Under the pieces are notes generated by a model. It made no database searches and had not been told where the DNA came from. It saw nothing but the letters and a program-made list of their open reading frames with translations. Shown piece after piece: positions 944-64,000 of a stretch of 64,000 nt of DNA. Every line of letters begins with the position of its first letter. The first letter of the stretch is position 1. The DNA lies in contig CAXXSM010000130.1 of assembly GCA_963663405.2 (NCBI GenBank), positions 117,027 through 181,026 on the forward strand, read 5' to 3'. Source of the DNA: a bacterium (GTDB lineage: Bacteria > Hinthialibacterota > Hinthialibacteria > Hinthialibacterales > Hinthialibacteraceae). The position numbers and the translations under genes are program-made.

Positions 944-1785
944 ATGAAGAGAGTCTTATTTTTTCGCGTTGCTAGTCGTTGTATTCGCTCCTCTTTCAAT
1001 CGCGTAATCGATTATAATTGTCACCGATGCGCCTGAAGGTGAAGTCGAGGGATCGGGAAACTTGGGTGATTTTTTACGGGGTCTTGGGTATACGGTCGAC
1101 GCCGATCCGGGTGATCCAGACCAGAACGAGGGTGGAAACAGCGCTTTTCGTGATGTTCTGACCGATGAAGAGATTGCGCTTCTTGAGATCTACGATCTCG
1201 TTATTGTTCATCGTTCGACGAACAGTGGTGATTTTGATCAGAGCGCTATTTTCTGGAATGAGCTGCAAGTTCCCCTATTGCTTGGAAGTTCTTATTTGGG
1301 GGCGCAACACAGATCCTCGTTGGAATTGGGTGATTGGCCCTACCGCCAGAGAAACTTCACAATACTTGGAAGTCGCTGAACCGGATCACCCGATTTTTAC
1401 GGGGATTGAAATAGTAGATGGCAAAGTCGATCTCTATACGCAAGATCAAGATATTGATTATCTTGATACCGGTGGTCAAGAGGGATTGGGGAATGGAATT
1501 CTTCTGGCGGAAACCGAGTTAAACTTAGGCACGGCCATAGCTGTTTGGGATGGGGATGGCTCAACGCTGGTTCCTTTCCAACCCGACGGGATTGATGAGC
1601 ATTCTTATAGGCGGGTGTTTTTTGCTATGATGCGCTATTTTGAAGACGATGATACTGTCGATATCACTTTCGAGCAATATTCGGAAAATGGGCTCCAACT
1701 GATGGCTAACGCCGTTGAATATACCATGACAGGCGAAGTCACGGGTGGACCTATTACATCTGTGGCGACTTGGAGTCTTTATTGA
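944..1785 (+). CDS. Secreted acidic hypothetical protein ending in TSVATWSLY (frameshifted in assembly)
   Basis: AGGAG RBS at 931 and ATG at 944 with signal-peptide-like MKRVLF...; continues through ORFs 1062..1379 and 1165..1785 across indels. Confidence 0.7.
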
Positions 1786-4564: not shown

Positions 4565-6131
4565 TTATTCTTCTGTTTTTCGTTGGAAATAGATCATCCG
4601 AGCGTAATAGGTTTCTTTTGTCGCAATCAGTTCCGGCGCTTTGAAATGGCGTTCAAGGAATTCCCGGACCGGTTGAAGATGGGGATCCTGGTCTTCGAAA
4701 ATTTGATGGTAATATTTCCCATACATCACACAGAGATCGATCGGCAGCGTTTCCCAATATGCGGTGGTTTTTTTCATATCTTCTAATGTGAGATACTTGC
4801 GGCCGGCGGTATTCATAAATGGAGGAATGCGGACTTGGCGATTTCCCCGGATGGAAGGAGGAACTTCTTTGTCCGTCCAAATATAAAACGCTGAATTGAC
4901 AAAACAGAGAAGGTATTCTGACGGACAACGCCGTTGGATAAAAGCGGCGAAACCACGTTCATCCTTCAGTGTAATATTTGGATATTGCCAATTTGATCGC
5001 GGCCAGAACGGCGCCGTACAAAGGAGTATCAAGACGATTGGAATGGCGGGATGGAGAAGGATTGACATCCTGACGGGTATTTTTTCCATTAACCAGGCAC
5101 AAAAACCACCCGCGAGGATACAAGCGGGCGCGGTGATCACCAGCATGTAATGCGGCCAGACGTGACTTAAAGCGAAGAGGTTGACTCCAAATTCCAAGAC
5201 CAGCCAGACAGCGGGTATCCACAACAGCCGGAATCGTTTTGAAAGAATTGCCATGACGCCAAACAACGCAAGAAACCAGACGAGAGGATTAAAATGCGCG
5301 ATCATCCGGAATTCCATCCACCGGTCCAGCAGTGTGTAATGAAAGAATCCAGCCATCGCGGTGTTGGCCCCTATCAGATCGTAGAAAAAAGGCTCCATCG
5401 CCCCAATCGAGACGATCACAATCAATAGAAGAATCAATGGAGGTAGAAATCCGGCCAAGAACCACATCAGGTTCCTGGCAATGGACTTTTTTTCTCCATA
5501 AAAAAAATCCCGCCAGCGCCAGAATAGGAAGAATCGTCACTCCCGTCTGTTTATTCAATATACAGAGAGCGCTGAATAGACCCGCCAGCGTCATGTATAA
5601 CGCTTGGTTGCGTCTGCGTCCTATGGTGAATAGGGCGAGCGCCCAGATCGACAATTCCGGCGCCAAAGTTGAGACATGCAAGGCTTTCGCCCAAATCGCG
5701 GAATAGGGATCGAACGCCAACCAGCATGCGGCGAATAATCCTGTCTTTTCATCTCTCAACTCCCGTCCAAGAAGCCAAATTGCGAAGATGGAAGAGATGG
5801 AGAATAGAATCATGAATATCCGGACAGGAACGATTGGAACGCTTGAAAACAGGAAAAACGGGAAACTCAAGATCGAGACAAGTGGCGGTTTGTTCAGATG
5901 AACATCTAAATAGGGCAAATGCCCCCGCATCCATTCTCTCCCTTGCATGAGATAATCGCCTTCATCTACATTCGTGCCACAAAAGAGAGTCCAGCTGCGA
6001 AGGATCAGCGCCAGCAGCAGAACAGCCGCAATTGGAAGATACGGCTCCATCCAGTTCTTTGAAGGTATTTGAACTTGTTGTGCTCTATTTTGGGAAGAAA
6101 CGATGGAATGGCTATCTGCTTGGCTATCCAT
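4565..6131 (-). CDS. GT-C fold glycosyltransferase (ArnT/GT39-like), one frameshift near 5490
   Basis: NVDEGDY and HLNKPPL loop motifs, many TM helices, WPHY motif; ORFs 5289..6131 + 4565..5467. Confidence 0.85.
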
Positions 6132-7408: not shown

Positions 7409-10018
7409 ATGAGAAAAACGTATTTCTGCATTGGTTTGGTCTGTTTGGGAATGGTTTTGGGAATGGGAGTTTGGGCGGATGAATGGGATCCAAGGGATGA
7501 TACGCCCTATGGGGCGACAAATTTAGGCGTCATTCCTTACGATGGGATTGAACATCCTGATCATACTCTGAATCCGAGTGATACAGAAGATTTTTTCCGT
7601 TTCACACTTCGAGGAGGATATTCATATGGGATTTATTCGATGGGTTATTATAACGCAGATTTAACTGGATATATGATTGACGAGGAAGGCCAGGAATATT
7701 GGGATGAAGAATCTGGTTTTAATTCAAACTTTGCTTTTATTATTTCTCCAAAGGAAAACACGAGTAAGGAATTTACACTGCGAGTAATGAGACAAACTGA
7801 TGCAGGTGATTACAAATATGATTTGTATATTGAGGCTTTTGATGATCCCTGGGATCCGAATGAAGATACGGATACAGCGACAAATTTAGGACGGCCCACG
7901 GATAAGGAACAGACCTTAGGTCCCCTCGTTTTAGGTGGGATTAATTACGATGATGGAGGCGCAAGTGATTCTAGTGATATTATTCAATTCTTCCTGGAAA
8001 AAGATAAAACGTACACGTTTTGGACGACAGGGCAAAATGATACGCGTGCCACTTTGCGGCAAGGGTCAACCTTAGGAACGATTTTAGGGAATGATGAAGA
8101 TAGCGGTCCGGACAAGAACTTCAAGATCGAATATACACCTACAAGTGATGTCCGAGTTTATCTGAAAATTGGAATGAATGCGGATGAGGGCGCGTATACG
8201 CTTCACTACCTTCATGAACCGGAAGTGGAACAGCTTGATCCCTGGGAACCGGATCACCCCTACGACAATGCGACGCCCTTAGATGTACCCACTGATCAAT
8301 GGCAAACCAATGGACCTCATCTTCTTAAAAAAAATATTGATGATGAAGATTATTTCCGATTTGAACTGCCCTCAGGACAAAATTATATTTTTAGGGCGAA
8401 GGGCAATGCGAAAGCGGATGGACAAATCTTAGATAAATATGGCCGTGTCGTCAAATTAGAACCCTTTAGCGGGAATCCAGAATATCCATTTGTCATTGAT
8501 TACCGTGTATTGTATCAAGGTGTCTATTATATCGCCGCCATATTATTTGCACCGGAAGATAACGTTGAATATTCCTATGAACTTTCCTATATCGGTTCCC
8601 ATGAACCAGAAGCGGTGGAATTAGATACACCCACGGAAGAAGAACAGGTTCTTTCGTCGCAGAAATTGGAACCGAGTGATATTCATTGGTATAAGTTCGT
8701 TCTATTTGAAGGAGTTCGATATGAATTCTGGTCTACTGGCGGTTCTGATGTCTACGCGGAACTCTACAAACACGATACGAGCAGGCAAGTTCAGGTAGAC
8801 GATGATAGTAGTGATGGGATGAATTTTAAAATCGACTACAAACCATGGGAATCCGACGCGTTTTACCTCGCCGTACGATCGAACGATCATGGGGAAATGG
8901 CGGAATACGATCTTCATTATAAAATCGTTACAGTCAGTACGGATACAGTGATTGGTGGTGAAATCGTCAATTCCGCCGTTCTAGAGACTGTCGATATCCC
9001 CATTTATGTCGAGAATCTAGCCGAAACGAAATCGATGACGTTTGATGTTGTTTTTGATTCGGATAAACTCGCTTGGGGATCGGACGCCCGTGTGATCCGG
9101 TTGGATACGATGTTGGCCGCCTGGGTGAATATTCAAGCCAACGAGGTTGAGCCGGGCCGTCTTCGCGTCGCGGCTACCGCGTTCGCCGGCTCTGGTGTTG
9201 AAAGAGACGGGGTGTTGGTGATTCTCCGGTTCGATGTTGGAAGCGGTGTCGAAGAAAATTCTCATACAACAATTTCTTTCGAGAATCTTAAAGATGGGCT
9301 GCAAGGCGCGCAGACAGATGATGTTCTTATCATTTTCACGATCAAACCCGAAAAAGGGGATGTGAATATGGATGGGGAGATCACCGCGTCTGACGCGCAG
9401 CTGGCGTTTCAAATATCACTCGACTCCGCCGGTGATGTGACCGAAGATCAAATCTGGGCGGCGGATATGACCGAGGACGGCGTTGTCACGGCGGAAGACG
9501 CTCAACAGATTCTTCTCGCGGCGGCGGGGATTAATCTTTCTGGGAAAACCGTTCGTCCTCAAGCCTTGGGTGATGAAACGGAGGGAGATGATTATACGAT
9601 CATCACGGTGGAACGGGTACAGGCCGCTCCTGGTGATTCGGTCTCTGTGCCTGTGCGAATCGATCCAGACCGCGATATCCGGGCGATTTTCGTCGAATTT
9701 TCTTATGACCGGAACAAGATGTCGTTCGTTGGGGAAGATTTTGAGGGAACGATGCTTGAACGATTCTATTTTGCTGGAACCAGTGAATATTATCCGGGCA
9801 AAGTGCGTCTAGCCGCCGCCGCTTCTCTCAATCGTCCCATCCAGGAAGAGGGTGTGCTGTGCAAACTGAATTTCAAGGTCAATGATGACGCTTCGGGTGT
9901 TTCCACAATTTCAATCAAAACCGTTCTGGATGATCTTCTCGGCGCTGAAACCGTGACCGGTTATGTCGCGATTCTCGAAGAAGAGATGACAACAATTGGG
10001 AACTGGATGGTGTATTAA
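7409..10018 (+). CDS. Secreted protein: 4 PPC-like domains + cohesin-dockerin-cohesin + C-terminal TTIGNWMVY
   Basis: Signal peptide; repeated D.F.F/DD.G...NF.I units; dockerin GDVNMDGEITASDA...AADMTEDGVVTAEDA flanked by cohesin-like beta-sandwiches. Confidence 0.85.
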   Translation: MRKTYFCIGLVCLGMVLGMGVWADEWDPRDDTPYGATNLGVIPYDGIEHPDHTLNPSDTEDFFRFTLRGGYSYGIYSMGYYNADLTGYMIDEEGQEYWDEESGFNSNFAFIISPKENTSKEFTLRVMRQTDAGDYKYDLYIEAFDDPWDPNEDTDTATNLGRPTDKEQTLGPLVLGGINYDDGGASDSSDIIQFFLEKDKTYTFWTTGQNDTRATLRQGSTLGTILGNDEDSGPDKNFKIEYTPTSDVRVYLKIGMNADEGAYTLHYLHEPEVEQLDPWEPDHPYDNATPLDVPTDQWQTNGPHLLKKNIDDEDYFRFELPSGQNYIFRAKGNAKADGQILDKYGRVVKLEPFSGNPEYPFVIDYRVLYQGVYYIAAILFAPEDNVEYSYELSYIGSHEPEAVELDTPTEEEQVLSSQKLEPSDIHWYKFVLFEGVRYEFWSTGGSDVYAELYKHDTSRQVQVDDDSSDGMNFKIDYKPWESDAFYLAVRSNDHGEMAEYDLHYKIVTVSTDTVIGGEIVNSAVLETVDIPIYVENLAETKSMTFDVVFDSDKLAWGSDARVIRLDTMLAAWVNIQANEVEPGRLRVAATAFAGSGVERDGVLVILRFDVGSGVEENSHTTISFENLKDGLQGAQTDDVLIIFTIKPEKGDVNMDGEITASDAQLAFQISLDSAGDVTEDQIWAADMTEDGVVTAEDAQQILLAAAGINLSGKTVRPQALGDETEGDDYTIITVERVQAAPGDSVSVPVRIDPDRDIRAIFVEFSYDRNKMSFVGEDFEGTMLERFYFAGTSEYYPGKVRLAAAASLNRPIQEEGVLCKLNFKVNDDASGVSTISIKTVLDDLLGAETVTGYVAILEEEMTTIGNWMVY

Positions 10019-10132: not shown

Positions 10133-10741
10133 ATGAAACTGAGATCCGGCGATCGAATCCAAAACAAGCGCGCTATGACGCTGATCGAATTACTCGTCGT
10201 GGCGGCGATTCTTGGTATTCTTGTGGCGGTGGCGCTTCCCAATTTTCTCAACGCGTCGCTGCGGGCCAAGGTTTCCCGCGCGCGATCGGATATTCGTTCG
10301 CTTGCGTTCGCCGAGGAGACGTACGCGCTTGATAATGATGGGGGCTATCCCCCGGACGGTTATTCTTCCCGCCCCAATCACCTTTATTGGCTCACCAGTC
10401 CTGTGCCTTATATGGCTTCGATCCCTCTCGATCCATTTTTACCCCGCGATTGGGAGTATACACGCCTTTATCTTTCTGATTCAGCCAGTTTTCAAAGGCG
10501 AAAATATCAAGCGTATGTTCTTTTCTCGGCGGGACCGGATCAAGGTTTTGTGATTGTGTATCGTTCCGGATGGTCAATCTCTCCCTGTTTTGGAAAACAG
10601 CCTTATATCACGTACGATCCAACCAATGGAACGCGCAGCGGTGGCGATATTTATTGGTACGGAGGGAATCCGTCAGGTATCCCGCTCTGGGTGGATGGAG
10701 AAACGCTTGAGGGGAGGTTTCCACCGAATTTTGGGGGTTGA
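10133..10741 (+). CDS. Prepilin-type N-terminal cleavage/methylation domain protein (GspG-like pseudopilin)
   Basis: RA|MTLIELLVVAAILGILVAVALPNF, YALDN..YP, IPLDPF, SAGPD, YDPTNG..SGGDI. Confidence 0.9.
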   Translation: MKLRSGDRIQNKRAMTLIELLVVAAILGILVAVALPNFLNASLRAKVSRARSDIRSLAFAEETYALDNDGGYPPDGYSSRPNHLYWLTSPVPYMASIPLDPFLPRDWEYTRLYLSDSASFQRRKYQAYVLFSAGPDQGFVIVYRSGWSISPCFGKQPYITYDPTNGTRSGGDIYWYGGNPSGIPLWVDGETLEGRFPPNFGG

Positions 10742-20879: not shown

Positions 20880-21883
20880 ATGCGTGGATTTCGACCCTTT
20901 TTCTTATTCAATGCGGCGCTCGTTTGCTTATTTCCGCTAGGAGAAACAACAGCGAATGCGGCGGATGAGCCTGTGATGAAGTTTGCGGATACATCAAAAG
21001 GCCGGCCGTTTTCCAAAGATCCCGCTGTGGTCCATTACAAGGGGAAATACTGGATGTATTATTCGCTGCCTCCCTTCGGCGATGGACGTGATGATGATGG
21101 ATGGAGCATTGGAATCTCTACAAGTGATGACCTTGTGTCGTGGTCAAAAGCCGGTGATCTTTTTGGTCAAAAAGGCGGGTGTGAAAAAAAGGGAATCGCG
21201 GCGCCGGGCGCGATTGTGCTAAATGATCAAATTCATCTCTTTTACCAAACCTATGGGAACGGCCGGAACGACGCGATCTGTCACGCTGTCTCGGAGGATG
21301 GGATTCATTTTACACGCAATTCAACAAATCCCATCTTTGCGCCAACGGGATCGTGGAACGCGGGGCGGGCGATCGACGCGGATGTGATCGCGCATGACGG
21401 CAAACTGTTTCTCTATTTCGCGACGCGTGATCCTGCGATGAAAATCCAGATGCTGGGCGTTGCTACCGCTCCGTTGGATTCGGATTTTTCCCGTGAATGT
21501 TGGACCCAACGTTGTGACGCTCCGATTTTGAAACCGGAACTTCCATGGGAACAAACTTGTATTGAAGCGGCGGCGGTCTGTAAAAAGAACGATCGGTTGT
21601 TCATGTTCTACGCCGGCGCGTATAATAACCGTCCACAGCAGATCGGCTGCGCGGTCAGCCGGGACGGGTTTTTCTTGGAAACGGTTGTCTGATTCCCCCA
21701 ATTCTTCCTAATGGTAAACCCGGCGAATGGAACGCCAGTGAATCGGGTCATCCTTACGCCTTTACGGATCGGGATGGAACAACATATCTCTTTTTCCAAG
21801 GGAACAATGATAATGGGAAAACATGGTATATCTCGAAGAAGAAAGTGCAATGGAAAGACAACCGGCCGTATTTTGACGAATGA
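20880..21883 (+). CDS. Secreted five-bladed beta-propeller glycoside hydrolase (GH43/GH117-like), C-terminal frameshift
   Basis: Signal peptide; SKDPAV, AAPGA, AIDADV, IEAAAV, SGHP blade motifs. Confidence 0.85.
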
Positions 21884-27727: not shown

Positions 27728-30700
27728 TTATAAGTTGACTTCGTATGTAATAAACAGAATTTCACCAGCTCGATTGGTGTGCGTTTCTTCTTTCCCGCCA
27801 GGATAAAGCCGGCGTAAATCGTCGATGTACCGTTTATTGTTGCGGATTAAGACGAATGATACCGGTCCCCGTCGATCGACGCGTTTTCCCCAATATTGTT
27901 TTCGCATTAATGATATCTTTCCCTTTTAAGTCAGGCGCCATGAATCGAATGTTTTGATAATTTATGTGAAAATAAGGAGAGCCAAGGAAGAATACAAAAT
28001 GGCTTGAACTGATCTGTTGTAAGTATCGGGCGGCTCGTGTTGAATCCTCCATCTGCTGTGGTTCCTGCATAATTTTATTGAAATATCGATCAATACTGAA
28101 CGCGGAAATCAACAGCGTAAGAAACACCGTCAAAAAGAATCGCATAGTGGATGGCCATTGTCCTACACGAACAATTTGCCGAATCCCCGCATGCAGGATA
28201 GGCGCGGCGATGAAAAATAAGAGAGGAACAAGGCCTGTCAATCGTTGATAGGGAGGGGAACTGATTGTCATAGCGCTCCCCGTGAGTAGTGTTAACACTA
28301 CCCAGGCTAGAAGCAGCGACGCGGTTGGACGCCAAAAGGCAGCGAGTAAAAAAAGAACACCTGTGGAAAAGAGCGTAGCGGGAATTGGATCCAACAAGCC
28401 TCCATATTTATTATTGACATAGAAGGGACTTTTATCAGGATAGGAAACGGTTGCGATCACTGATTTATTCAATTGTCTCGCTATGACGGACGTGAGAGGT
28501 AGGTTCTCTGGATGTTCTCCGCGGATTAACTTCCGTCCATGCTCGGAAAGAATGCTGACCGTATTCATTCGTGAGTACGTTTTATCGGGGAAAAAGAAAT
28601 AATTTCCAACCAATGGAGACGCTGAGATCCAAAAAGATACGATACATAGTATCCCATATTGAAAAGCACGGTTAAAACGGAGCAGTCGAATGATCCAAGC
28701 GAGAAGAATTGAGATGAGTAGCAGCGGAAGTAAGAGTTTCCCCGCTTGATAGGATAAAAAACCCAATCCACTAATAAATCCCGCCGCGCAGATATACTGT
28801 GTTTTCCCATCTTGTATGGCTTTAACAAAACAGAATAAGACAATGACTGTTAAAAGGGTAGTTTGATTATATCCTGTACCCAACCGCGAGAAATGGATCA
28901 TATAGGAAGAACAGACAAACATATACGCCGCGATCGCAGCGGTTGTGGGACGCATGAGACGCTTGCCTAATAAATAAAAAAATGGAATCGCAATGATTGT
29001 ATAGAGAGCCCCGGCTAAGCGTATTCCAGTGATTGTGTCACCAACGATGTACATTACTGAAGCGGGTAAAAGAAAAAAGAAATTAGGAATATCAAACCAA
29101 CTGGGAGTGAAAATATTGAAATTTCCCGCGTTTCTTAGTTTGAGCGCGTGTAAGGCCACATTTCCTTCGTCACCGTTCACATCCGTTGGAATGTAAGCCG
29201 CTTGAATGGTATATAAGAATATAGAGGCGATAACAAGGATGAAAACGGCTGAATTGGCGCACGCTTCTGCACTTGTGTTTTCCGAGTCATTCTCTTCTGT
29301 ATCTATTAGTGTTTTTTTATCAATTAAAAACGGTAGAGCGAATGAATGTGTGCCAAAACGGATTTCAGTCCATGAAAATTGATCCAAGGCAGTTCGTGGG
29401 GAACACTTGGAAAATAGGCAGTATACACCAACTAACCAAATTCCCATCGGCACATACCAGGGGAGAATGAATCCGAACGGAGTGGTAGCTTGGTGATAGT
29501 ATTGCGCCACAGCCGCGGCGATGGGCCAGACCAGCAGGAAGATGAATCGATAAATTGAAAATGGAAATCTTGTGTTTTCTTCCTTGCTCTTCCATTGTTC
29601 TTTCTTATGTATCACTACTTTGGCTTGTCGGTATGATAGTAAAAAGAGGATAAAAACACCCAATGCAAATTCCCCGTCAGGTTGGTAGGGAGGGGAGGAT
29701 GCGGTTTTTGCGATTGAACTCGTCAATGCAGATAACAAAATAATAAAAGCAGTTAAAACAATATACCCAACCGCAATGGTTTTGGATCGGAACGCGCCAA
29801 ATCCTATTCCAAAAAGCCACAAAAATAATGACACCCCAAACAGAATGAGAGTGACATGGTTCTGGATGAGAGAAACTGCGTATGCTATCAGTGATATCTG
29901 GCTCTTTGTTGCGGTCTCTTTTTTTGTGACGGAAGGTTGTGAGGCAGGGGGTGGTTGCATTGTGGGGCTGGGATGAAACCTATTTTGGATGGCGCAAAGA
30001 TAGAGGCCGGGAGGATCAAGGAACACGGCTGAACGTATGTAATTTAGATGATTGCGTATTTCTTCTATACCGCCTTCCGGCGTGATTTGTTTAAGAGATT
30101 GGTTGTCACTGTCCGTAAAGAGAACGGCTCCGTTCGGTCGTAATGTCAGTTTCCGAGGATGATTGAGTCCTGTATAGGCTTTTATACATTCTCCCTTTGG
30201 ATTGATGTCAAGGATGCGGTGATGGTCGAAATCCGTGATGAGAGTGTGACCGTTAGAAAGACGCAACGCGTCCAGCGGTTGTAAAAGATCCTTATCGTAC
30301 CGCCATACTTCGACTCGATTTTGGGTGATCTCAATCACGGCGCCCGCTGAAGCGTCGCAAACGAGAAGATTACCATTCGGCAGCACATCCGCGTCGGTGG
30401 GGCCAATAAAGGGGTGAGTGATAATTGTTCTCCTGCCGGTTTGTTGATTGTAGAAAAAAACTTGTTTTCTTTCCCTTGATGTCAATAAGTATTCATTGGA
30501 CGTAGGGAGGGCGTCCACATCATTGAGTGGACCAAGCCCGATACGGAAGAGAATGCTCCCGGCGATGTCGTACAGAAGGAATTCACCCCGCATGGTGACG
30601 ATCGCGATTTTGTTTTTTGTGGGGAGGATGTCAATATCGGCGGGAACGCCAGGAATGACGATAAACCGTTCTGGTTCCCCCGTATCGTTGAACAACAAAA

Positions 30701-30827
30701 TACCAGGTTTATCTGGCGTATCCTCCAGAAAAGTGAGAGTATCGGATTGAGTCGATCGGGGGATCAATCCGATGGATACCGTGATGATGGCGCCGATGAA
30801 AACGAATTTCGTTCTATTTTGCCACAT
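27728..30827 (-). CDS. GT-C (GT39/ArnT-like) glycosyltransferase with N-terminal beta-propeller; 3' frameshift
   Basis: Signal peptide, GP.DAD.LPNGN.L..D repeats, NGDEG, HFSRLG, YQAGK; out-of-frame tail ...LYPGGKEE...YEVNL*. Confidence 0.85.
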
Positions 30828-37900: not shown

Positions 37901-38534
37901 GAGTTTCGATGATGTAGGTTAAATCGGTGGAACTTGTATCGAACTTGTACCAATCGATTTCTCCTGCGCTTTCAATCCATCCATGTTCGGTGGGGCCATC
38001 CACAATTAATGTAACAATCGGCTTTGGAGTGGATGTGGGAGTAAGGGTCGGATAAGAAATTGTTGGCATTGGCGTGGGGGAGGGTTTGATGCCGGTTTTC
38101 ACATTGATTGTGTATTCCCCCGTTAGTTTTCCTTCTACTTTTATATAGTACGTGCGATTCGCTTCGAGGGTCAGAGCGATTTGGGATAATGTTCCTGCGC
38201 CTCCGTCGTCATTCGACACAATTATTTTTGTCCAATCATCCGGGCCATAGAGTGTGATGACGGTGTCGATTGTGGTCTGGCTGGACGAGGGGTGGGTTTC
38301 GATGATGATATAACTCTTGATCGAGGGAGTCTGGAACCGCCACCAATCTTCTTCCCCCTTGTCCGTGATTCGGCTGGTCTCGGAATTCCCGCCGACTGAG
38401 ATATCCAAGATTTTCCCTGGTGTTTGAGCGCTGGCCGTATGGGTATACAGAAATCCACCGCATAGTGAGAGTATGAGACACAACAAAGGAAGCAGTTTCT
38501 TTTTCACGCGAGTTGACTCCATCAGACAGGTCAT
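31990..38534 (-). CDS. Giant secreted modular protein: 6 PPC-like domains, Pro/Thr and GGDN linkers, beta-sandwich, FG-GAP repeats, duplicated C-terminal domain (multiple frameshifts)
   Basis: ORFs 36210..38534, 35370..35753, 33959..35494 and 31990..33894 join into one reading; repeated GEEDWY.F...IETH...DT...LYGPN...YYVKV; D.D.DG..D FG-GAP motifs. Confidence 0.8.
36907..37002. repeat. 12-bp tandem repeat (TCACCACCATTA) x8, encoding GGDN
   Basis: Five perfect and three variant units. Confidence 0.9.
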
Positions 38535-38755: not shown

Positions 38756-41700
38756 ATGAAAGCGCTTCGTTTTGTTCCTTTTTCGTGTTGGATAGTTCTT
38801 TTTTTGATTTGTGTGGGAACCACTCAGGCTCAAACGTCTATCAGCGGTTCCCAATCGGGCGTGTGGAACACGGGGGGAAGCCCCTATCTAATCATAGGCA
38901 ATGTCTCTGTGCCCGCCGGGCAGACGTTGACCATACAACCGGGTGTCATTGTGAAATTCAACAGTGGAACCCAACTTGTTGTGGATGGGACTCTTCTCTG
39001 TGAAGGAACCAGCGGCGGGACGATCGTCTTTACCTCCTATCGGGATGACAGCGCAGGTGGGAGCACGGATGACGAAACGGCGAGCGCAGGTGTGGCGGGG
39101 GATTGGAAAACCGTGCAGATCAATCCGGGCGCCAAGGCGGTCTTCAAGGAATGCCGGTTTCAATATGGTGGGGCCTCCGCGGCTCCGGCCGTGTACAGCG
39201 GCGGCGCGTTGACGATGGAGAATTGCCAGATTCAGTACAGCGCGGGGAAGGGAGTCCAACTGGCGGGAGATGTTGTGAAGACGTTGCAAGCCGTTGTCTG
39301 TTCGGATAGCGCCGGGGCAGGATTTGAACTGAGTGGGACCAATGCGTCGTTGTATCAATGCGTCAGTGAACGGAACGGCGCGGGGCTCGTGATGAGCGGC
39401 TCCAATTCCTGTACGGAATGCGCATTTAACAATAACACCGGCGAGGGGATACGAATTTCGGGAGGCGTTTTGGATCAACCGGTCTGCGCGGATTGTCAGT
39501 GCATGGGGAATGGTTCGGGTGTGGCGGTCAATCCCGAACTCCTGCCAACGATCCAGCGGCTTACCATCAGTGGAAATGTTTGGCAGACCGTCACCCTTCC
39601 CGGCGGTACTTTAAAAAAAGATGTCAATTTTAAAGATATCTTTCTCACGGAGGATTACGATTTAATTTACATTCTGCAAGGCAATCTGGCGGTTGATTCA
39701 ACCGTCACGTGGACTATTAACGCGGGGGCTATGTTCAAACTGCCAAACAATGGCGTCATTACCGTGAACGGCTCGCTCTTTGTTTTTGGGGAAGGGGATC
39801 ATCCTGTCGTCTTTACGTCCTATCGTGACGATCGAACCGGCGGGGATACCAATGGGGATGGTCCTACCACGGGGGCGCCGGGGGATTGGGGAACGGTTAT
39901 CGTGTCTGATACCGGTAAGGCGTTTATGGAATACGCCCGGTTTCAGTATGGAGGAAACGCGAACCAATCATCCCTGCGATCCACGGGTGAACTGACATTG
40001 AACAACTGCCTTTTTCAATACAGCAAAACCAATGGCGCTTATTTGACGGGCAGGCAGGTCAATCGGGAATTTCTCGCTTTCGGTGTGCAAAACTGTCAGT
40101 TTATCAATAACACAGTGTATGGATTGTATTCAGAAGGCACGGGATCGATCCAAGGGTGCCTTTTTCAGAGTAACACAAACGCAGCCGTCAACATCCAAGG
40201 CGGGCAGGTGGATACGGTTACCTTCAGAGGCTCCACCATTCTTAACAATGGCTCAATTGGCGTGATTCAGCCGCATCTCCTCGCTGGGGTCAGTGAAAAC
40301 ACGGTCGATCCTACAACCAATGAGCGTCTCGATATTCCCAGTGGAACGATCAAGCGCGACACCACGTTTGATATGAGCGGCGTCCAATACAACCTCGCCG
40401 AGGGGGGGATTACGATTGACAACCTTGCGAAACTGACCATCCAACCCGGTGTGATTTTCAAAGCGGACGCCGCGCGTACTCAACCGGTTCTCACTGTGAA
40501 CGGCTCGCTTGAAATCGTGGGAACCGGCGCCCAGCCGGTGGTTTTCACCTCCTATCGTGATGACACCTATGTGGGGGATACCAACGGTGACGGCCCTTCT
40601 GAAGGCGCGCCGGGGGATTGGAATTCCCTGCATATTTCCGAGTCTGGTTCGGCGGTGATTCGCGATTGTCTTTTCCGTTATGGCGGTTATAACAACAACC
40701 GTTCCCTCATTCTCCAAGGCGGGACATTGACCGCGAATCAATTGACCATCGAACGGAGCGCGGGAAGTGGGGCTTTGTTGAACGGTTCATCGGTTTCTCT
40801 GACAGATACAACGATCCGCAATTGCGGCGCGCATGGAATTGAACTCGACAGCCCCGCTTTCCAACTCACTGGCTGTTATTTTCAATCCAACAAGGGCAAT
40901 GGGCTCAGCGCCAATGGCTCTGGAACGATCACTGGATGCGTCTTTAATAGGAACACGCAGGCTGGCTTGATCGAAACCGGCGCCACCACCGCCAGTATCA
41001 CTTGCACGGGGAGCCAGTTTGATGGAAATGGAGTCATCGCGTCCATCCAGCCACATCTGCTGTATGGATTCAGTGGGAATACGGTGAATGTTGGAACCAA
41101 CCAATTTTTCCAGATCCCCAGCGGCGTTATCAGCCGGGATACAAAACTGGATATTCCCGGCGCGTTATACGATCTCGCCAATGGGGGACTGACCATCCAA
41201 GCGGGCGCGGTTCTGCAGGTGGATCCGGGCGTCTTTTTCAAACCCGCCGCCGCGCGTTCGAATCAATTGATCGTGCAAGGAAAATTGGAGGCGATCGGGA
41301 CCGCTGAACTTCCCATCATCTTCACCTCATACCGGGATGATGAATTCGGCGGAGATTCCAATGGGGACGGCCCATCCACCGGCGCGCCAGGCGATTGGGG
41401 ATCAATTCTTGTCGCGAATACGGGGGACGCTGTATTGACACACTGCGTCATCCGTTATGGGGGAGTCAACAACCAGATAGCGCTGACCGCGAACGGTTCC
41501 TTGACGCTCAAACAAACCATCATCGATCAAGCCCTATCGACAAGTGTTTCCGTAAACAATTCCACCGCCGTGTTTGAAAACAGCACATTCCAACTCGCCG
41601 GGCTGCATGGGGCGAGCGTAACCAGCCCGAATTTTACGATAACGAACTGCGTGTTCGCGTCGAACAATGGCGCGGGATTGAACGCCAATGGCTCCGGATC

Positions 41701-44700
41701 GATTACGGATTGCGCTTTTCATAACAACATCGCGGAAGCGTTAGTTGTTACCGGCGGGCAAACTGATTTTATTTCCTGTTCCGGCGGTATGTTTACCGGC
41801 AATGGACGGATCGCATCCATCCAACCGCATCTGTTATATGGATTCGGCGCGAATCAGGTGGACACTTCGACCAATGTCTTTTTCTCGATCCCAAGCGGCG
41901 TCATCAATCATGACACCCAATTGGCGATCGCGGGCGCGATGTACGATCTCGCGGATGGAGGAGTCACCGTCGCGGAGAACGCAACTTTGCGGATTGATCC
42001 AGGAGTGATCTTTAAATCCAACAGCGCCCGGACCAATCAATTAATCGTTCAGGGCAAATTAGAGGTGAATGGAACCAGCGCCAATCCTGTTGTTTTTACC
42101 TCCTATAAAGACGATGCGACGGGTGGAGATACCAACCAAGATGGACCATCGACAGGTCAGCCGGGAGACTGGGGGATGATCTCGATCGCAGCGAGCGGCT
42201 CCGCTGCGTTCAACCATTGCGTTCTTCGCTATGGCGCCGCCAATACTTTTTCATCGATCTTGGAAGCGAACGGCGCTGTGACACTCGATCAAACGACGAT
42301 TGAGAAAAGCCGGTCGATGGGTCTTATGGTCAATCAAGCCGCCGCTTTGTTGAAGAACAGCGTCATTCAGGAGTGTGGATCAACGGGGGCTAAGATCGCG
42401 GGTCCCAATTTTTCGATTCAAGGTTGTGAATTCATCGCGAATAACGGTTCGGGTATGGACGCCAATGGTTCTGGAACGATAACGAACAACACATTTCAAG
42501 GCAACACAGGAAACGCGGTTGTTCTTTCCGGCGCCCAAACCGATACGATCCTTTGCGCGAATAACGCCATTGCTGGAAATGGAGGCGCCGCGTCTGTTCA
42601 ACCCAATCTTCTACCCGGATTTATGGATAATCAGATCGATATCGAAACCAATTCTGTGATCAGCGTTCCCAAGGGCTCCCTCGTCCGTGACGCGACGCTA
42701 GCTGTTACAGGGGCTTATTACGATATTAGTGAAGGTGGGATTACCATTGAACAATACGCCTCTCTCACAGCGATGCCCGGGATCTTTTTTAAAGCGCTGT
42801 CGGCCCGCGCGAATACTGGAAATCTACTTGTTGTGAATGGGAAATTATTTGTTCAGGGAACGGACGCCACGCCCGTTGTGTTCACTTCGTACCGGGATGA
42901 CGAATCAGGTGGTGACACCAACAAGGATGGCGTTTCAAAGGGTGTTCCCGGTGATTGGGGAAAAATCAATATTGCGGCGTCCGGTGAGGCTTCGATCGAA
43001 TACGCGGATATCCGTTTCGGCGCCAGCGGCGCGCTGTCTTCCAAAGGCAAACTTACGATCCAGCATTCCACGATTGAATCCAACGGCGGAGTTGGGATGC
43101 TGTTGGAGGGCGCGTCTCTCGCGCAGTTCTGTTCGATTCAAAATAACGCGGGTGTGGGGATTCAAGCGTCCGGGTCTAACGCCGTTGTGCGCGGCTGTGA
43201 CATCGAAGGAAACGGATCCGGTGTGTCTGGAGGATCGCAGAACTCCATTATCGAAGCGGAATATAATTATTGGGGTTCTCCCAGCGGGCCTCTTGATGAA
43301 TCGGACGACCGGCAGAACGGCGGTGATTACAATCCATCCGGCGCGGGGGATTCTGTTTCGAACAATGTGGATTACCGGCCCTGGTTATTCTCTTCGTATC
43401 GAAACGCTGTGGCTGGATTCGCTGCGGTTTTGATTGAGGCTCCGCGGGATGTGAAAGCGAACGCCCAATATCTGGCGAAAGTGTATGTGAAAACCGACTC
43501 GTTCGCGTTGGGATCGTACGACCTGACGATTGGAGCGTATCCGAAAAACATGGTTGAGATCGACCGGATCATTCCAAGTAACACGGCGGAATTCGGCGCG
43601 CCCAACTTGGCTCAAATCTCGACATCGTTGGATTCCATAACCGTTAACGACTCGCAAACCAGTGGAACCGATTCCCCGAAAGGGAAGATTCATCTGTTTA
43701 CGATTGTTTTTACACCCATTGCGATCGGTAATTTCTCGTTCGAAATCGACAACGCTGAATTGCGGACGTTGGATTTCAAACTGCTGCTTCCATCGGCTGA
43801 ATCCGTAAACCTTCGTGTTTCGGACATTGGGATTTTAGGCGACGCGAACGGCAATGGGTTATTTGACGCCGGAGACGCGCTGGCGATCGCCCAATATGTG
43901 AATGGGCTCCGGCCCACGCTGCCGGGAAAAGAAGCCGCCGACATCAACCAAAACGGGCATATCGATCTCGACGACGCGCTGCTGATCGCTCAGATCATTG
44001 CCAAACAGCGCCCGCATCCTATGGGATCTTACGCCGCGTTGGAATCCTACGTTCCTCCTGCCAATACCCGGAAACTCGCGCCTTTCGCCGCCACTGGATT
44101 GGAATTGCAAGTGGTCAAGGAACCCGCGTATTTAGGCGATCAATTGGTTCTTGATCTCTTCATTCAATCTGGAAACCAAACCTTAGGGGCGTACGATCTG
44201 GCTTTGGAATACGACGCGCGGGTCTTCATGGCCGCGCAGGTGTCGCAAGGGGGAGACTCGTATTTTGGGATATCGCCTATTGTCAATATGGATCACACGA
44301 ACGGGATTACGTACATTGTGGATTATCAAGCCGCCTCGTTTACAGAGCCGGTGGGACGGATTCATATCGGCCGGATCGCGTTCGTCTTGTTGGATCTTCC
44401 TTCCATTGGAATTACGGAAATCACCGTGCGTCCGGGCCGTCCGCAGGATGTAAATTTTATCCCCATCGATCTACGTGAGGTCACGATTTCCGTTCCATTT
44501 GACGTGAACCAATTTCCTGCCACGCCTACACCACCGCCCAGCGCTGACGCGACACCCACTCCAACGCTTCCCGCTGGGGCGCTGCCGGATATCGAGCCGG
44601 TTCTCACGTATGAATTCAGCCAAGATTCGCTGGCGGCGAATGGGTGGTCCGAAATCCCCGGTGGATTCAATAGCATGCCTCCCGGTGTTGCCGCTATCAG

Positions 44701-45148
44701 TGATATTCCTTCAGGAATGATTCCTACTTCCGTTGATGGGCGGGGATTGGAGATTACGGTTGATCCAGGTGAATTGGTGTTCCTCCATTCCAACGCCCCG
44801 ATCCAGGCGGCGCAGGGGCCTCTGCTGATTGATTTGGTGGTAAGAGCCAGCGGGTCAGGCGGTCAGGTCGCATTAGTCGCGCTGAAAGGCAGCCTGGCGA
44901 CGTATCAGGATTTGGATGGATCGATCGCTACGCTTATCCCAATCAATTCGGTCAGTTTCGCGAATTGGCCGAAGCGGTTGTTCCTCGTTTACGAACCTGA
45001 TACCGGCGCGCTTGTGAATCCAGCGATTCAGGTTTATTCCGTCAGCCCGGACGCGAGCACAACTGTCTGGATCGATCGGATGAATGTCTATGCGATCGAT
45101 CTCTCTATCCCTTACATGAACGAATTGTTTAATTCCAGCGCCAATTAA
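38756..45148 (+). CDS. Giant secreted protein: six parallel beta-helix modules + cohesin-dockerin-cohesin + PT linker + C-terminal domain
   Basis: AAGGAG RBS; six VFTSY.DD..GGDTN.DG...G.PGDW motifs; NYWGSPSGP; dockerin GDANGNG..DAGDA...ADINQNG.IDLDDA. Confidence 0.9.
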   Translation: MKALRFVPFSCWIVLFLICVGTTQAQTSISGSQSGVWNTGGSPYLIIGNVSVPAGQTLTIQPGVIVKFNSGTQLVVDGTLLCEGTSGGTIVFTSYRDDSAGGSTDDETASAGVAGDWKTVQINPGAKAVFKECRFQYGGASAAPAVYSGGALTMENCQIQYSAGKGVQLAGDVVKTLQAVVCSDSAGAGFELSGTNASLYQCVSERNGAGLVMSGSNSCTECAFNNNTGEGIRISGGVLDQPVCADCQCMGNGSGVAVNPELLPTIQRLTISGNVWQTVTLPGGTLKKDVNFKDIFLTEDYDLIYILQGNLAVDSTVTWTINAGAMFKLPNNGVITVNGSLFVFGEGDHPVVFTSYRDDRTGGDTNGDGPTTGAPGDWGTVIVSDTGKAFMEYARFQYGGNANQSSLRSTGELTLNNCLFQYSKTNGAYLTGRQVNREFLAFGVQNCQFINNTVYGLYSEGTGSIQGCLFQSNTNAAVNIQGGQVDTVTFRGSTILNNGSIGVIQPHLLAGVSENTVDPTTNERLDIPSGTIKRDTTFDMSGVQYNLAEGGITIDNLAKLTIQPGVIFKADAARTQPVLTVNGSLEIVGTGAQPVVFTSYRDDTYVGDTNGDGPSEGAPGDWNSLHISESGSAVIRDCLFRYGGYNNNRSLILQGGTLTANQLTIERSAGSGALLNGSSVSLTDTTIRNCGAHGIELDSPAFQLTGCYFQSNKGNGLSANGSGTITGCVFNRNTQAGLIETGATTASITCTGSQFDGNGVIASIQPHLLYGFSGNTVNVGTNQFFQIPSGVISRDTKLDIPGALYDLANGGLTIQAGAVLQVDPGVFFKPAAARSNQLIVQGKLEAIGTAELPIIFTSYRDDEFGGDSNGDGPSTGAPGDWGSILVANTGDAVLTHCVIRYGGVNNQIALTANGSLTLKQTIIDQALSTSVSVNNSTAVFENSTFQLAGLHGASVTSPNFTITNCVFASNNGAGLNANGSGSITDCAFHNNIAEALVVTGGQTDFISCSGGMFTGNGRIASIQPHLLYGFGANQVDTSTNVFFSIPSGVINHDTQLAIAGAMYDLADGGVTVAENATLRIDPGVIFKSNSARTNQLIVQGKLEVNGTSANPVVFTSYKDDATGGDTNQDGPSTGQPGDWGMISIAASGSAAFNHCVLRYGAANTFSSILEANGAVTLDQTTIEKSRSMGLMVNQAAALLKNSVIQECGSTGAKIAGPNFSIQGCEFIANNGSGMDANGSGTITNNTFQGNTGNAVVLSGAQTDTILCANNAIAGNGGAASVQPNLLPGFMDNQIDIETNSVISVPKGSLVRDATLAVTGAYYDISEGGITIEQYASLTAMPGIFFKALSARANTGNLLVVNGKLFVQGTDATPVVFTSYRDDESGGDTNKDGVSKGVPGDWGKINIAASGEASIEYADIRFGASGALSSKGKLTIQHSTIESNGGVGMLLEGASLAQFCSIQNNAGVGIQASGSNAVVRGCDIEGNGSGVSGGSQNSIIEAEYNYWGSPSGPLDESDDRQNGGDYNPSGAGDSVSNNVDYRPWLFSSYRNAVAGFAAVLIEAPRDVKANAQYLAKVYVKTDSFALGSYDLTIGAYPKNMVEIDRIIPSNTAEFGAPNLAQISTSLDSITVNDSQTSGTDSPKGKIHLFTIVFTPIAIGNFSFEIDNAELRTLDFKLLLPSAESVNLRVSDIGILGDANGNGLFDAGDALAIAQYVNGLRPTLPGKEAADINQNGHIDLDDALLIAQIIAKQRPHPMGSYAALESYVPPANTRKLAPFAATGLELQVVKEPAYLGDQLVLDLFIQSGNQTLGAYDLALEYDARVFMAAQVSQGGDSYFGISPIVNMDHTNGITYIVDYQAASFTEPVGRIHIGRIAFVLLDLPSIGITEITVRPGRPQDVNFIPIDLREVTISVPFDVNQFPATPTPPPSADATPTPTLPAGALPDIEPVLTYEFSQDSLAANGWSEIPGGFNSMPPGVAAISDIPSGMIPTSVDGRGLEITVDPGELVFLHSNAPIQAAQGPLLIDLVVRASGSGGQVALVALKGSLATYQDLDGSIATLIPINSVSFANWPKRLFLVYEPDTGALVNPAIQVYSVSPDASTTVWIDRMNVYAIDLSIPYMNELFNSSAN

Positions 45149-45173: not shown

Positions 45174-45279
45174 AATGTTAGCCTATCAATGAACTCCTTC
45201 CGATTATTGAAAGCCAGAGTTATCTTCTTTGTGTGAGACACTCACATTCCCTTATCATAATTGTTTCGTGAATTCCCCT

Positions 45280-46053
45280 ATGCAAACAGGAACCATTTTT
45301 GATATCAAACGATACGCCATCCATGATGGACCTGGGATTCGAATTACGATATTTCTTCAAGGCTGTCCGTTGCAATGCTGGTGGTGCCATAATCCGGAAG
45401 GGATACCCATCGAACCGGCTCCCCGGATTCGAGCGTCAAAAGAAGTGTTGACGGAACGGCCTGTATCTGTTCGCGAGTTGATGGAGGAGATTGAGAAGGA
45501 AATCGTGTTTTTCGATGAATCCGGCGGGGGCGTTACGTTCTCCGGCGGCGAACCGTTGATGCAGCCGGTTTTTCTCCAATCCATGCTTAATGAATGTAAG
45601 AAACTCGATCTGCATACCGCGTTGGATACAACCGGCTATGCGTCTCCACAGCATTTAGAATCCATTATGGATCTTGTTGATCTATTTCTATTCGATTTGA
45701 AATTGATCGATGATGAGCGGCATATCCAATACACGGGCGTGTCGTGTCAGCCCATTCTTGAAAATTTAAAACGGCTTATCAATCATCAGAAAAATGTAAT
45801 GATCCGCTTTCCTCTCATTCCTTCGATTACGGATACGGAAGAAAATATTGTGGAACTAGGTGATTATCTCTCTTCATTGAATCGGATCAAAACGATTCAC
45901 ATTCTTCCCTATCATAAAACCGCGTCCGAGAAGTACCGCCGATTGCATCGGGAAGATAAAATGAAAGGGATCGAACCGCCTGCGGCTGAACGAATCGAGG
46001 CCGTCAAGGAACGGTTCGAAGACCGGGGATTTATTGTGGAAATTGGAGGATAA
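45280..46053 (+). CDS. Glycyl-radical enzyme activating protein (short form)
   Basis: HDGPGIR..FL.GCPLQCWWCHNPEG, GGGVTFSGGEP, LPYH; directly upstream of the GRE. Confidence 0.95.
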   Translation: MQTGTIFDIKRYAIHDGPGIRITIFLQGCPLQCWWCHNPEGIPIEPAPRIRASKEVLTERPVSVRELMEEIEKEIVFFDESGGGVTFSGGEPLMQPVFLQSMLNECKKLDLHTALDTTGYASPQHLESIMDLVDLFLFDLKLIDDERHIQYTGVSCQPILENLKRLINHQKNVMIRFPLIPSITDTEENIVELGDYLSSLNRIKTIHILPYHKTASEKYRRLHREDKMKGIEPPAAERIEAVKERFEDRGFIVEIGG

Positions 46054-62318: not shown

Positions 62319-64000
62319 ATGAGAGACAATATTAATTACGTGATAAGAGTTTTATTTTTATGGATTATTTTGGATATTTCATGTCTTTATTCTGAAGCAC
62401 AACAGGTCTTACAAATCGAATGCGGATCGAATGTTTCCGTAGATTGTGACACAGCATATGGAGGGATGGCTATTAGTCTGAGTAATGGCAGTGTGATTTA
62501 TGGAGAAAAAACCTTTACTTCGCCTTATTATTATTTTGATAATTCAAATGGTGTAAATGAAAGCATTAGAATTGCTGTAGAAAAACCATATAATCCTTTA
62601 TCTACTATAGATTCAGATCAATTTGTTGTTGTTGTTTCTGAATATCCAAGTAATAATATACTCTATGTAGCCAATGGCGCATCGGTAGAATATGATGTAG
62701 ATTCAACACAATATCTCATCAGAATTTATTATTTAGAAGAAGATTTTTTTAATTCTAGTAATTCATTTAGTTTCTCGTATAAATTATATTGTGAACCGAT
62801 AATAAAACCAACTCCAACAACAACCCCTACACCGACAATAACTCCAACACCGACAATAACCCCAATTCCTACAATAACCCCAACACCGACTCTGGAAATT
62901 GTTACCAATGTCCAGGCGTCACAACGTACAGATGGATCGTGTATTGTCGATATCAATTACGATTTGGAGCACTCATCAATTGAGCGATTCAATGTTTCTC
63001 TCGCTTTATCTGATAATGATGGCGATTCTTATTCGATAACGCCCCAATCGATTACTGGAGACATAGGTGATGTACAGATTGGGATCCAAAAACACATCGA
63101 ATGGGATGCGGTGAAAGATCTCCCAGGTGTACAGGGAGACAATTTTAACGCGGCAGTGATCGCCAAAGAACCGAGTCAATTTTATGGTATTGTTGGGCCT
63201 TCAGGAGAAGGATTATATGGTCTAGGACTGCTAAGAGGAGCCGCATATTCTCCAGACGGGACAAAAATCTTGACTTGGGGAAGTATTGGATTCTTTGAGT
63301 GGGATGTTCATACAGGTGAGCGGATTAATTCAGTATTCACAGAGTATACATATGATGCATGTTATTCACCGGATGGATTGCTAGTTTTGACCGGATGTGG
63401 CGACAGTACAGCGAAATTGTGGGATGTGGGTACGGGAGATTTGCTACGCACTTTTGAAGGGCATATTTCGAGTGTCGAATCCGTAGCATTTTCGCCGGAT
63501 GGAACGATAGTTTTGACTGGTAGTGTGGATAATACAGCGAAATTGTGGGATGTGGGTACGGGAGATTTACAACGCACTTTCGCTAAGCTTTCTGAGGATA
63601 TCGATTCCGTAGCATTTTCACCGGATGGGACAAAGATTTTAACCACTGGATGTAATAGATATTCAGCGTGTTTGTGGGATTTGAGTTCGAGGGATTTGTT
63701 ACGTTCTTTTGCCAAGGTGAAATCCTTTGCATTTTCCCCGGATGGGACGAAGGTTATAACGGGAAATCGTGACGGTACAGCGCAATTGCGGGATGTGAAC
63801 ACAGGAGTGTTGTTGCGAACTTTCGAGGGGCATACTTCTTTTGTCGACTCCGTGGCATTTTCCCCGGATGAGACGAAGGTTTTGACTGGAAGTTGGGACA
63901 AAACGGCGAAATTATGGGATGCGAACACAGGAGATTTGTTGCGAACTTTCGAGGGGCATACTTCGTTTGTCGACTCCGTGGCATTTTCACCAGATGGGAC
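62319..64000 (+). CDS. Secreted WD40-repeat protein with PT linker, truncated by window edge
   Basis: AGGAG RBS, ATG at 62319, open to the window end; repeats TFEGHTS.VDSVAFSPDG.KVLTGS.D.TAKLWD. Not in the ORF track because it has no stop. Confidence 0.9.
   Translation, partial: MRDNINYVIRVLFLWIILDISCLYSEAQQVLQIECGSNVSVDCDTAYGGMAISLSNGSVIYGEKTFTSPYYYFDNSNGVNESIRIAVEKPYNPLSTIDSDQFVVVVSEYPSNNILYVANGASVEYDVDSTQYLIRIYYLEEDFFNSSNSFSFSYKLYCEPIIKPTPTTTPTPTITPTPTITPIPTITPTPTLEIVTNVQASQRTDGSCIVDINYDLEHSSIERFNVSLALSDNDGDSYSITPQSITGDIGDVQIGIQKHIEWDAVKDLPGVQGDNFNAAVIAKEPSQFYGIVGPSGEGLYGLGLLRGAAYSPDGTKILTWGSIGFFEWDVHTGERINSVFTEYTYDACYSPDGLLVLTGCGDSTAKLWDVGTGDLLRTFEGHISSVESVAFSPDGTIVLTGSVDNTAKLWDVGTGDLQRTFAKLSEDIDSVAFSPDGTKILTTGCNRYSACLWDLSSRDLLRSFAKVKSFAFSPDGTKVITGNRDGTAQLRDVNTGVLLRTFEGHTSFVDSVAFSPDETKVLTGSWDKTAKLWDANTGDLLRTFEGHTSFVDSVAFSPDG

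Follow-up and report, generated by a model that had tools for sequence, protein, structure and literature searches.

What would a dockerin flanked by two cohesins do at the C-terminus of a secreted protein whose other domains are of a binding rather than a catalytic type? The question is raised by a 64-kb stretch of DNA (the window; positions 117,027 to 181,026 of contig CAXXSM010000130.1, assembly GCA_963663405.2) from a bacterium of the Hinthialibacterota. A first-pass annotation, made from the DNA letters alone, had read the order cohesin-dockerin-cohesin (Coh-Doc-Coh) in two of its proteins, a PPC-repeat protein (protein 1) and a beta-helix protein (protein 2), and had proposed that such chains could polymerize into a branched surface mesh. 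Our analysis finds that Coh-Doc-Coh is a conserved unit and, on balance, we think it probable that this unit serves as a portable C-terminal module for like-with-like assembly in a non-cellulosomal system of an uncultured lineage. The lineage is probably Gram-negative, and the closest relatives found are metagenome-assembled genomes (MAGs) titled candidate division CSSED10-310.

Two cohesins and a dockerin in protein 1

The cassette of protein 1 begins with a cohesin (Coh1, 8945..9331, + strand) that is fused directly to a dockerin (9350..9532). A flexible tether (9533..9595) then leads to a second cohesin (Coh2, 9596..9973). Over the whole protein, Pfam reports Cohesin at 71.6 bits in two stretches and Dockerin_1 at 32.2 bits. 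Scanned module by module, 8945-9340 scores 26.9 bits for Cohesin, 9341-9595 scores 37.5 bits for Dockerin_1 and 9596-9975 scores 54.4 bits for Cohesin, each above the Pfam gathering score (24.1 bits for Cohesin, PF00963; 22.9 bits for Dockerin_1, PF00404). With hidden Markov models (HMMs) derived from homologues, Coh1 falls at 8945-9331 (126.6 bits), the dockerin at 9350-9532 and Coh2 at 9596-9973 (137.9 bits). The two cohesins are 30% identical to each other (E 2e-13).

The predicted fold agrees with the profiles. An AlphaFold2 (AF2) model of the cassette, computed from a 34-row alignment, has a three-helix module between two nine-strand beta modules, with a mean predicted local distance difference test score (pLDDT) of 91.1 and a predicted template-modeling score (pTM) of 0.71; AF2 run on the cassette sequence alone, with no alignment, gave a pLDDT of 33.4. 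In Foldseek, the model matches the solved type I cohesins 6kgc_A, 5nrm_A and 1aoh_A with template-modeling (TM) scores of 0.72-0.78 (target-normalized) and a root-mean-square deviation of ~3 Å, and it also matches 2xdh, a non-cellulosomal cohesin of Archaeoglobus fulgidus. By profile and by fold, the modules of protein 1 are real cohesins and a real dockerin, and here the first-pass annotation was right.

The dockerin is internally symmetric and consists of two repeats, each a calcium-binding loop plus a helix, as seen in the Pfam match, the loops and the symmetry of the sequence. In the standard numbering of dockerin calcium loops, the relevant positions are 1, 3, 5 and 12; read by eye, all of them hold D or N in protein 1 except position 3 of loop 2, which is T. 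G145, D146, D157 and D192 of the dockerin are invariant in the 34-row alignment (A1). The tether that follows has a pLDDT of 51-72 at cassette residues 201-220, and its length varies within the family.

The gene occupies 7409..10018 on the + strand. Its open reading frame (ORF) opens with a TTG at 7397, and the ATG at 7409 is the likely start (869 aa), as judged from the database copy P0003, which is 869 aa long and 100% identical. The N-terminus resembles a signal peptide when read by eye, with a hydrophobic core and the end VWA (7409..7477). Between it and the cassette lies the cargo (7478..8944), three to four PPC-like beta-sandwich repeats, recognized from the Pfam PPC match and the motif D-x-W-D/E-P; the motif opens three of the repeats (aa 28, 150 and 281), and Pfam PPC reaches 23.5 bits on the whole protein, just below the cut-off of 25.9. 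The cargo of P0010, a PPC-Coh-Doc-Coh homologue, is related to these repeats. Another PPC protein of the window, with 774 aa (36210-38534, - strand), is 32% identical over aa 52-309 to the cargo of P0010 and has neither cohesin nor dockerin.

The cassette is a conserved unit

We used the 364-residue cassette of protein 1 as the query in an exhaustive phmmer search of representative proteins, which returned 1273 proteins at E<=1e-3 and 144 at E<=1e-10. Among the 150 matches listed of the 1273, at least 33 other proteins are colinear with the cassette over all three modules. Family HMMs built from the colinear cassette rows find a Coh-Doc-Coh run in 73 of 151 stored proteins, and the architecture is exactly Coh-Doc-Coh in 53. 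A word-index search with the same cassette returned protein 1 itself and one Ignavibacteriales protein only. Coh-Doc-Coh is a conserved unit, widespread in uncultured bacteria, and neither a coincidence nor a peculiarity of the window.

The unit also has a characteristic geometry. By HMM envelopes, Coh1 and the dockerin are separated by -3 to +2 residues in most units, and the tether from the dockerin to Coh2 measures 6-31 residues in most units, a figure that is ~9 residues longer in reality. Coh1 and the dockerin are shown by this to form a dyad with essentially no linker, and Coh2 to sit on a flexible tether of 15-40 residues.

The two cohesins also differ in descent. For 61 of 79 cohesins that precede the dockerin, the nearest neighbour is the pre-dockerin cohesin of another protein, and for four it is a post-dockerin cohesin; among post-dockerin cohesins, 72 of 89 have a foreign post-dockerin cohesin as their nearest neighbour. 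In 57 of 58 units, the identity of Coh1 to a Coh1 of another protein (median 46%) exceeds its identity to the Coh2 of its own chain (27%). A midpoint-rooted FastTree phylogeny of 327 cohesins did not resolve into a clean clade for each position (best F 0.46-0.48) and told less than the neighbour counts. Judged by these identities, Coh1 and Coh2 are distinct, old paralogues and the unit is inherited whole.

What varies is the material on either side. Upstream of the cassette in the 33 colinear proteins, Pfam finds WD40 in six, beta-helix/NosD in four, PA14 in two and PPC in two, and among the further cargo are LRR, C-type lectin, Laminin_G_3/PF06439, Kelch, NHL and CARDB domains; it finds no CAZy-type glycoside hydrolase (GH) in any of the 33. 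Downstream, eight of the 33 carry a C-terminal domain of the type IX secretion system (T9SS) type ~100 residues past Coh2, and a QNYPNPFN-type T9SS motif follows the cassette in many further family members. In the closest group, which includes protein 1, the chain ends 7-13 residues past Coh2. A tail motif, [DNE]-[WYF]-x-x-[Y/F/H/M/R], ends 10 of 14 short-tailed cassette proteins (among homologues P0005-P0027); the tail of protein 1 (9974..10015) ends N-W-M-V-Y, and the motif is kept at the extreme C-terminus of its closest homologues. In P0006 and P0007 the same motif runs on into a further domain, and the C-terminus of P0064, another cassette homologue, matches T2SSG weakly. A small ORF of the window (1165-1785, + strand) also ends W-S-L-Y; a frameshift or sequencing error is suggested there, because the overlapping ORF 1062-1379, in another frame, looks to be its N-terminal part.

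A second alignment (A2) was made from full-length rows that include the cargo. The homologue search with A2 brought up mostly WD40 proteins, the informative ones being P0183, P0184, P0190 and P0156.

A divergent cassette in protein 2

Protein 2 is encoded at 38756..45148 (+ strand). The ORF opens at 38729 (2139 aa), and 38756 is the likely start, since it gives the 2130 aa of the database copy, P0154. The N-terminus has a signal-peptide-like segment, and the cargo (38850..43390) is made of repeated right-handed beta-helix units (Pfam Beta_helix, 165.6 bits in six stretches). Behind it come an upstream cohesin-like module (module A, 43394..43828) that abuts the dockerin without a linker, the dockerin itself (43829..44008), a downstream cohesin-like module (module B, 44084..44533) and a C-terminal domain.

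The first-pass annotation had counted this region as a second Coh-Doc-Coh cassette, which holds for the dockerin. Dockerin_1 scores 31 bits on the whole protein and 38.3 bits on the module alone, above the cut-off, the family dockerin HMM gives 30.3 bits, and the loops are canonical in D/N when read by eye. The flanks fall short of the Pfam Cohesin cut-off: module B (scanned as 44096-44500) reaches 20.2 bits (E 7e-4, cut-off 24.1), and module A (scanned as 43409-43825) has no Pfam Cohesin match at all. Neither flank is detected by the cassette-family HMMs. A local jackhmmer search with the protein 2 modules gave a marginal match only, to P0046, and a word-index homologue search with the protein 2 cassette returned protein 2 itself only.

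Other comparisons tie the flanks to cohesins indirectly. Against the cassette cohesins, hhalign is weak for module A (P 0.13-0.18) and gives P 0.005-0.013 for module B, and the two modules match each other in BLASTP (E 2e-5). In a feature search of the ESM Atlas, all 30 of the 30 matches of module A are Cohesin clusters, with a top score of 0.95 and 185 of 256 features in common. Residues 1655-1838 of protein 2 are colinear with the bona fide Coh-Doc-Coh of P0184, which supports module B (27% identity, E 2.7e-6). The junctions follow protein 1 too, with zero linker on the 5' side of the dockerin and ~30 aa beyond it. The dockerins of the two proteins are 29% identical.

The C-terminal domain of protein 2 (44600..45145) is jelly-roll-like and possibly CBM_4_9-like. 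It is common to ORF 31990-33894 (- strand; BLASTP 3e-8), an FG-GAP protein; the precomputed Pfam label of the domain is PF28492. In the ESM Atlas, 22 of 30 matches are CBM_4_9 clusters (147 features in common), which we treat as a lead only. P0156 has two copies of the domain in tandem within its chain (42-46% identity), and because these copies are internal, a binding function is likelier for the domain than the anchoring role that had been proposed for it.

A third cassette protein is probably encoded at the edge of the window. The WD40 protein at 62319..63998 (+ strand) is cut by the window end, and its 39-47% identity to the WD40 parts of P0009, P0005, P0018, P0013 and P0011 points that way because the alignments to these five WD40-Coh-Doc-Coh proteins stop just before their cassettes.

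The window holds no classical cellulosome. Pfam finds no glycoside hydrolase family on protein 1 or protein 2, as the first-pass annotation had stated, and no T9SS-type sorting domain (Por_Secre_tail, FlgD_ig type) on either; NCBIfam has no model for either protein. Dockerins borne by plant-cell-wall glycoside hydrolases, which define the classical cellulosome, are missing from the window, where the only such enzyme, a GH43/32-like ORF at 20880-21692, is without a dockerin. The 64 kb also contain no primary scaffoldin (tandem cohesins plus CBM3, with an SLH or sortase anchor), and a scan with the family HMMs found no dockerin-only protein or anchoring cohesin in them.

Dockerin symmetry and co-variation with both cohesins

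If each dockerin binds cohesins of its own type, the dockerin helices and the cohesin sheets are predicted to co-vary, and this is what we see in a sample of 62 tight Coh-Doc-Coh units. The strongest co-varying pairs are symmetric positions within the dockerin, 155/190, 159/194 and 158/193, and symmetric dockerin positions are identical in 74-94% of units vs 27-68% expected. Dual-binding type I dockerins keep both of their halves alike.

Between modules, the dockerin is coupled more strongly to one sheet of each cohesin. For Coh1, the coupling is 0.151 with the b3/b5/b6/b8 sheet vs 0.117 with the back sheet (p 0.0011), and for Coh2 it is 0.146 vs 0.117 (p 0.0056). The difference between sheets was gone every time the dockerin rows were permuted (20 of 20). 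The co-variation of the dockerin with the presumed binding sheet of both of its own cohesins suggests a single specificity type.

Dockerins of the same type in related loci

Loci related to the cassette were located with one dockerin peptide pattern taken from A2. The resulting 25 loci are biased to one dockerin code and are an uneven sample of cassettes, since a single peptide pattern was used. Eighteen of them come from three CSSED10-310 MAGs, and the source genome of the window is not among the 25.

These loci hold 35 module-bearing ORFs: 28 with a dockerin only, five with Doc-Coh, one with five cohesins and one PA14-Coh-Doc-Coh. Pfam was run on 30 of the 35, five truncated or duplicate ORFs being left out, and 24 of the 30 are peptidases (C25 in 11, M14 in eight, S8 in four, C13 in one); the remainder include a PAD-type deiminase and an amidase. 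The peptidase dockerins are 50-59% identical to the cassette dockerin and of the same type. Because dockerins are borne mostly by peptidases in these relatives, the cassette dockerin type belongs to a wider, peptidase-rich, non-cellulosomal cohesin-dockerin system, similar in kind to those proposed for Planctomycetes (PMC6461901) and Cloacimonadota (PMC8542988). The dockerin-bearing peptidase genes often stand as tandem pairs in CSSED10-310 and related MAGs (L003, L018, L019, L020, L022 and L024). The five-cohesin ORF (L017, 11503-14169) is scaffoldin-like, has no carbohydrate-binding module (CBM) and lies near two dockerin proteins. The face residues of the CSSED10-310 cohesins, read for cross-compatibility, were non-discriminating.

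How the cassette could assemble

In the like-with-like reading that we favour, the cassette sits behind secreted domains of a binding type (in the window, PPC repeats, beta-helix and WD40) and would link them, by dockerin-cohesin contacts of a specificity type peculiar to it, into multi-protein assemblies that depend on Ca2+, the dockerin of one chain binding a cohesin of a like cassette. Coh1 would most likely be bound in trans, since its rigid fusion would keep its own dockerin off the presumed binding sheet and yet that sheet co-varies with the dockerin; head-to-tail chains would result. Coh2 could add a branch, close in cis on its own dockerin, or capture dockerin-bearing enzymes such as the peptidases of the relatives. 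The two cassettes of the window are so divergent that they are expected to form separate assemblies. A single mesh with both cargoes, as first proposed, is thus unlikely, given dockerins of 29% identity and protein 2 cohesins that the cassette HMMs do not see.

Several points weigh against this reading. Our dockerin and cohesin inventory of the source genome covers the 64-kb window only. The assignment of strands to sheets, on which the coupling difference depends, is one we take from the general cohesin topology laid on the DSSP string of the model. Moreover, the co-variation comes largely from two clades, one with code A..Q and the W-x-x-Y tail and the other with code P..L and T9SS tails, so that the independent co-variation events are few. 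The flanks of protein 2 are cohesin-like on a weaker and more indirect basis than those of protein 1. The pTM of 0.71 over three modules hints at a compact arrangement, possibly closed in cis, that could leave the unit monomeric.

In an adaptor role, which we regard as doubtful though the best of the alternatives, the cassette would be a hierarchical scaffoldin whose cohesins recruit dockerin-bearing enzymes and whose own dockerin plugs into a different, anchoring cohesin, with no self-binding. The relatives encode suitable components, namely many dockerin-only peptidases of the same code, Doc-Coh peptidases and the five-cohesin scaffoldin, and adaptor scaffoldins that combine the two kinds of module are well established (PMC11557425), a Doc-plus-Coh adaptor having also been proposed for the 'planctosome' (PMC6461901). 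What the adaptor does not lead one to expect is that the dockerin co-varies with the sheets of its own cohesins, given that the specificity types differ in classical adaptors. Since they share the type of the cassette dockerin, the peptidase dockerins of the relatives look like competitors for the same cohesins rather than a second tier, and the window holds neither of the partners, dockerin-only protein or anchoring cohesin, that an adaptor would use.

A closed form in cis seems rather unlikely to us. Here Coh2 would fold back onto the dockerin of the same chain, with Coh1 or no site left free, and the cassette would be a compact, stable, monomeric knob, stalk or single acceptor, not a polymerizer. 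A pTM of 0.71 together with a pLDDT of 91 suggests that AF2 places the modules relative to one another with confidence, and the tether between dockerin and Coh2 is always present, flexible and long enough for such a fold-back. Tethered partners see each other at a very high local concentration; domain-swapped oligomers are nevertheless a common outcome of tethered pairs. Closure on Coh2 also leaves unexplained both the co-variation of the Coh1 sheet with the dockerin and the retained likeness of the two dockerin halves.

The original proposal, an AB2 monomer whose one dockerin and two free, equivalent cohesins would build a Ca2+-dependent hyperbranched surface mesh of mixed cargo, is unlikely: the count of one dockerin and two cohesins per chain stands, the co-variation suggests one specificity type, several cassette proteins lie in one genome region and the cassette adjoins cell-surface sorting domains in relatives, but Coh1 and Coh2 are not equivalent sites (distinct paralogues, one fused and the other tethered), the window cassettes are too divergent for mixed networks, closure in cis is possible, and the dockerin-only proteins found in relatives would cap sites.

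It is tempting to go further than our favoured like-with-like reading and to picture a self-complementary polymerization unit, a symmetric dockerin fixed rigidly to Coh1 with Coh2 on its tether, through which secreted binding proteins of many uncultured Gram-negative phyla would form scaffoldin-free, Ca2+-dependent chains or hyperbranched coats at the cell surface, with orthogonal codes (A..Q, P..L and the beta-helix type) that would keep separate coats apart in one cell. On the sequence patterns at hand, we consider this improbable.

Comparison with known systems

X-module-dockerin dyads of types II and III likewise have a beta-sandwich module set against the dockerin with no flexible linker between them, and this module may stabilize the dockerin. 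The Coh1-dockerin dyad differs in that the abutting module is itself a cohesin, above the Pfam cut-off in protein 1.

Non-cellulosomal cohesin-dockerin systems in non-cellulolytic bacteria and archaea were reportedly described by Peer et al. 2009. More specific accounts concern the 'planctosome' proposed for freshwater Planctomycetes, a cellulosome-like complex of Cloacimonadota (PMC8542988) and a non-cellulosomal cohesin-dockerin system in anaerobic methanotrophic (ANME) archaea (PMC9012536). Like ours, these systems place their cohesins and dockerins on secreted proteins that lack plant-cell-wall enzymes; C25, S8 and M14 peptidases bear dockerins in the relatives of the cassette, and T9SS-type C-terminal domains for attachment to the surface occur in some lineages. 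They differ in being built, as described, from tandem-cohesin scaffoldins and enzymes with a terminal dockerin, whereas the cassette has a fixed Coh-Doc-Coh order, a linker-less Coh1-Doc junction and a place behind binding-type, not catalytic, domains.

The nearest precedent for the module order is one 'Coh2-Doc1-Coh1 scaffoldin-like protein' of Limihaloglobus sulfuriphilus, a member of the PVC superphylum (PMC11557425). It too comes from a non-cellulolytic Gram-negative organism, in whose genome no other multi-cohesin protein is reported, alongside 13 dockerin-fusion proteins. In the portion of the paper available, it receives one sentence as a borderline scaffoldin, and neither a family nor the junctions, the paralogy of the cohesins or the range of cargo is recognized; the comparison is by description only. 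The literature searched, which did not extend to the architecture-table supplements of the ANME and cellulosome-survey papers, contains neither of the phrases 'cohesin-dockerin-cohesin' and 'Coh-Doc-Coh', and nowhere in it did we find the unit presented as a conserved family; those supplements may list the architecture.

Two other arrangements share part of the logic. The Ruminococcus bromii amylosome enzyme Amy4 combines a cohesin with a dockerin on one polypeptide, and its cohesin binds its own dockerin experimentally, which predicts multimerization (PMC4611034). Its modules are a single cohesin, a catalytic GH13 module and a dockerin at the end of the chain, and its host is Gram-positive, whereas the cassette has two cohesins, an internal dockerin and no enzyme. 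Clostridial scaffoldins with a C-terminal Coh-Doc bi-domain, such as the ScaO-like Coh1-Doc1, are likewise large, non-catalytic proteins that end with a cohesin placed immediately ahead of a dockerin (PMC11557425). One of them, a 30xFN3 scaffoldin of C. pasteurianum, ends in Coh2-Doc2 and has no other partner in the genome, which leaves self-recognition as the sole option (PMC11557425). These bi-domains lack the second cohesin past the dockerin and belong to another lineage with other cargo.

Other genes of the window

A prepilin-type gene (GspG-like, N-methyl; 10133-10741, + strand) lies 115 bp 3' of the gene of protein 1. Directly 3' of the beta-helix gene, 45229-48419 (+ strand) encodes a glycyl-radical enzyme (PFL-like, 782 bits) with its radical-SAM activase, a pair that is probably unrelated to the cassette. 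The region 48001-52000 has a GC content of 0.37 vs 0.44-0.53 elsewhere in the window, and ORF 48586-51570 (994 aa), which begins with a signal-like segment, is matched by neither Pfam nor NCBIfam. Four PMT_2 genes, encoding dolichyl-phosphate-mannose-type glycosyltransferases, occur within the 64 kb (5289-6131, 27834-30827, 54519-56240 and 56247-57776), one of them fused to NHL repeats; they may have a bearing on surface glycosylation.

Implications

[quoted passage not shown] A fixed unit carried by adhesin-like domains, not by enzymes, suggests scaffoldin-free assembly or surface display in uncultured phyla. Were the cassette to close in cis, it would be a natural autoinhibited cohesin-dockerin pair. 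If it binds its own kind, as we favour, it would be a building block of the AB or AB2 type found in nature, of relevance to how these cells make their surface layers or aggregates and usable as a compact tag for self-assembly in several orthogonal specificities.

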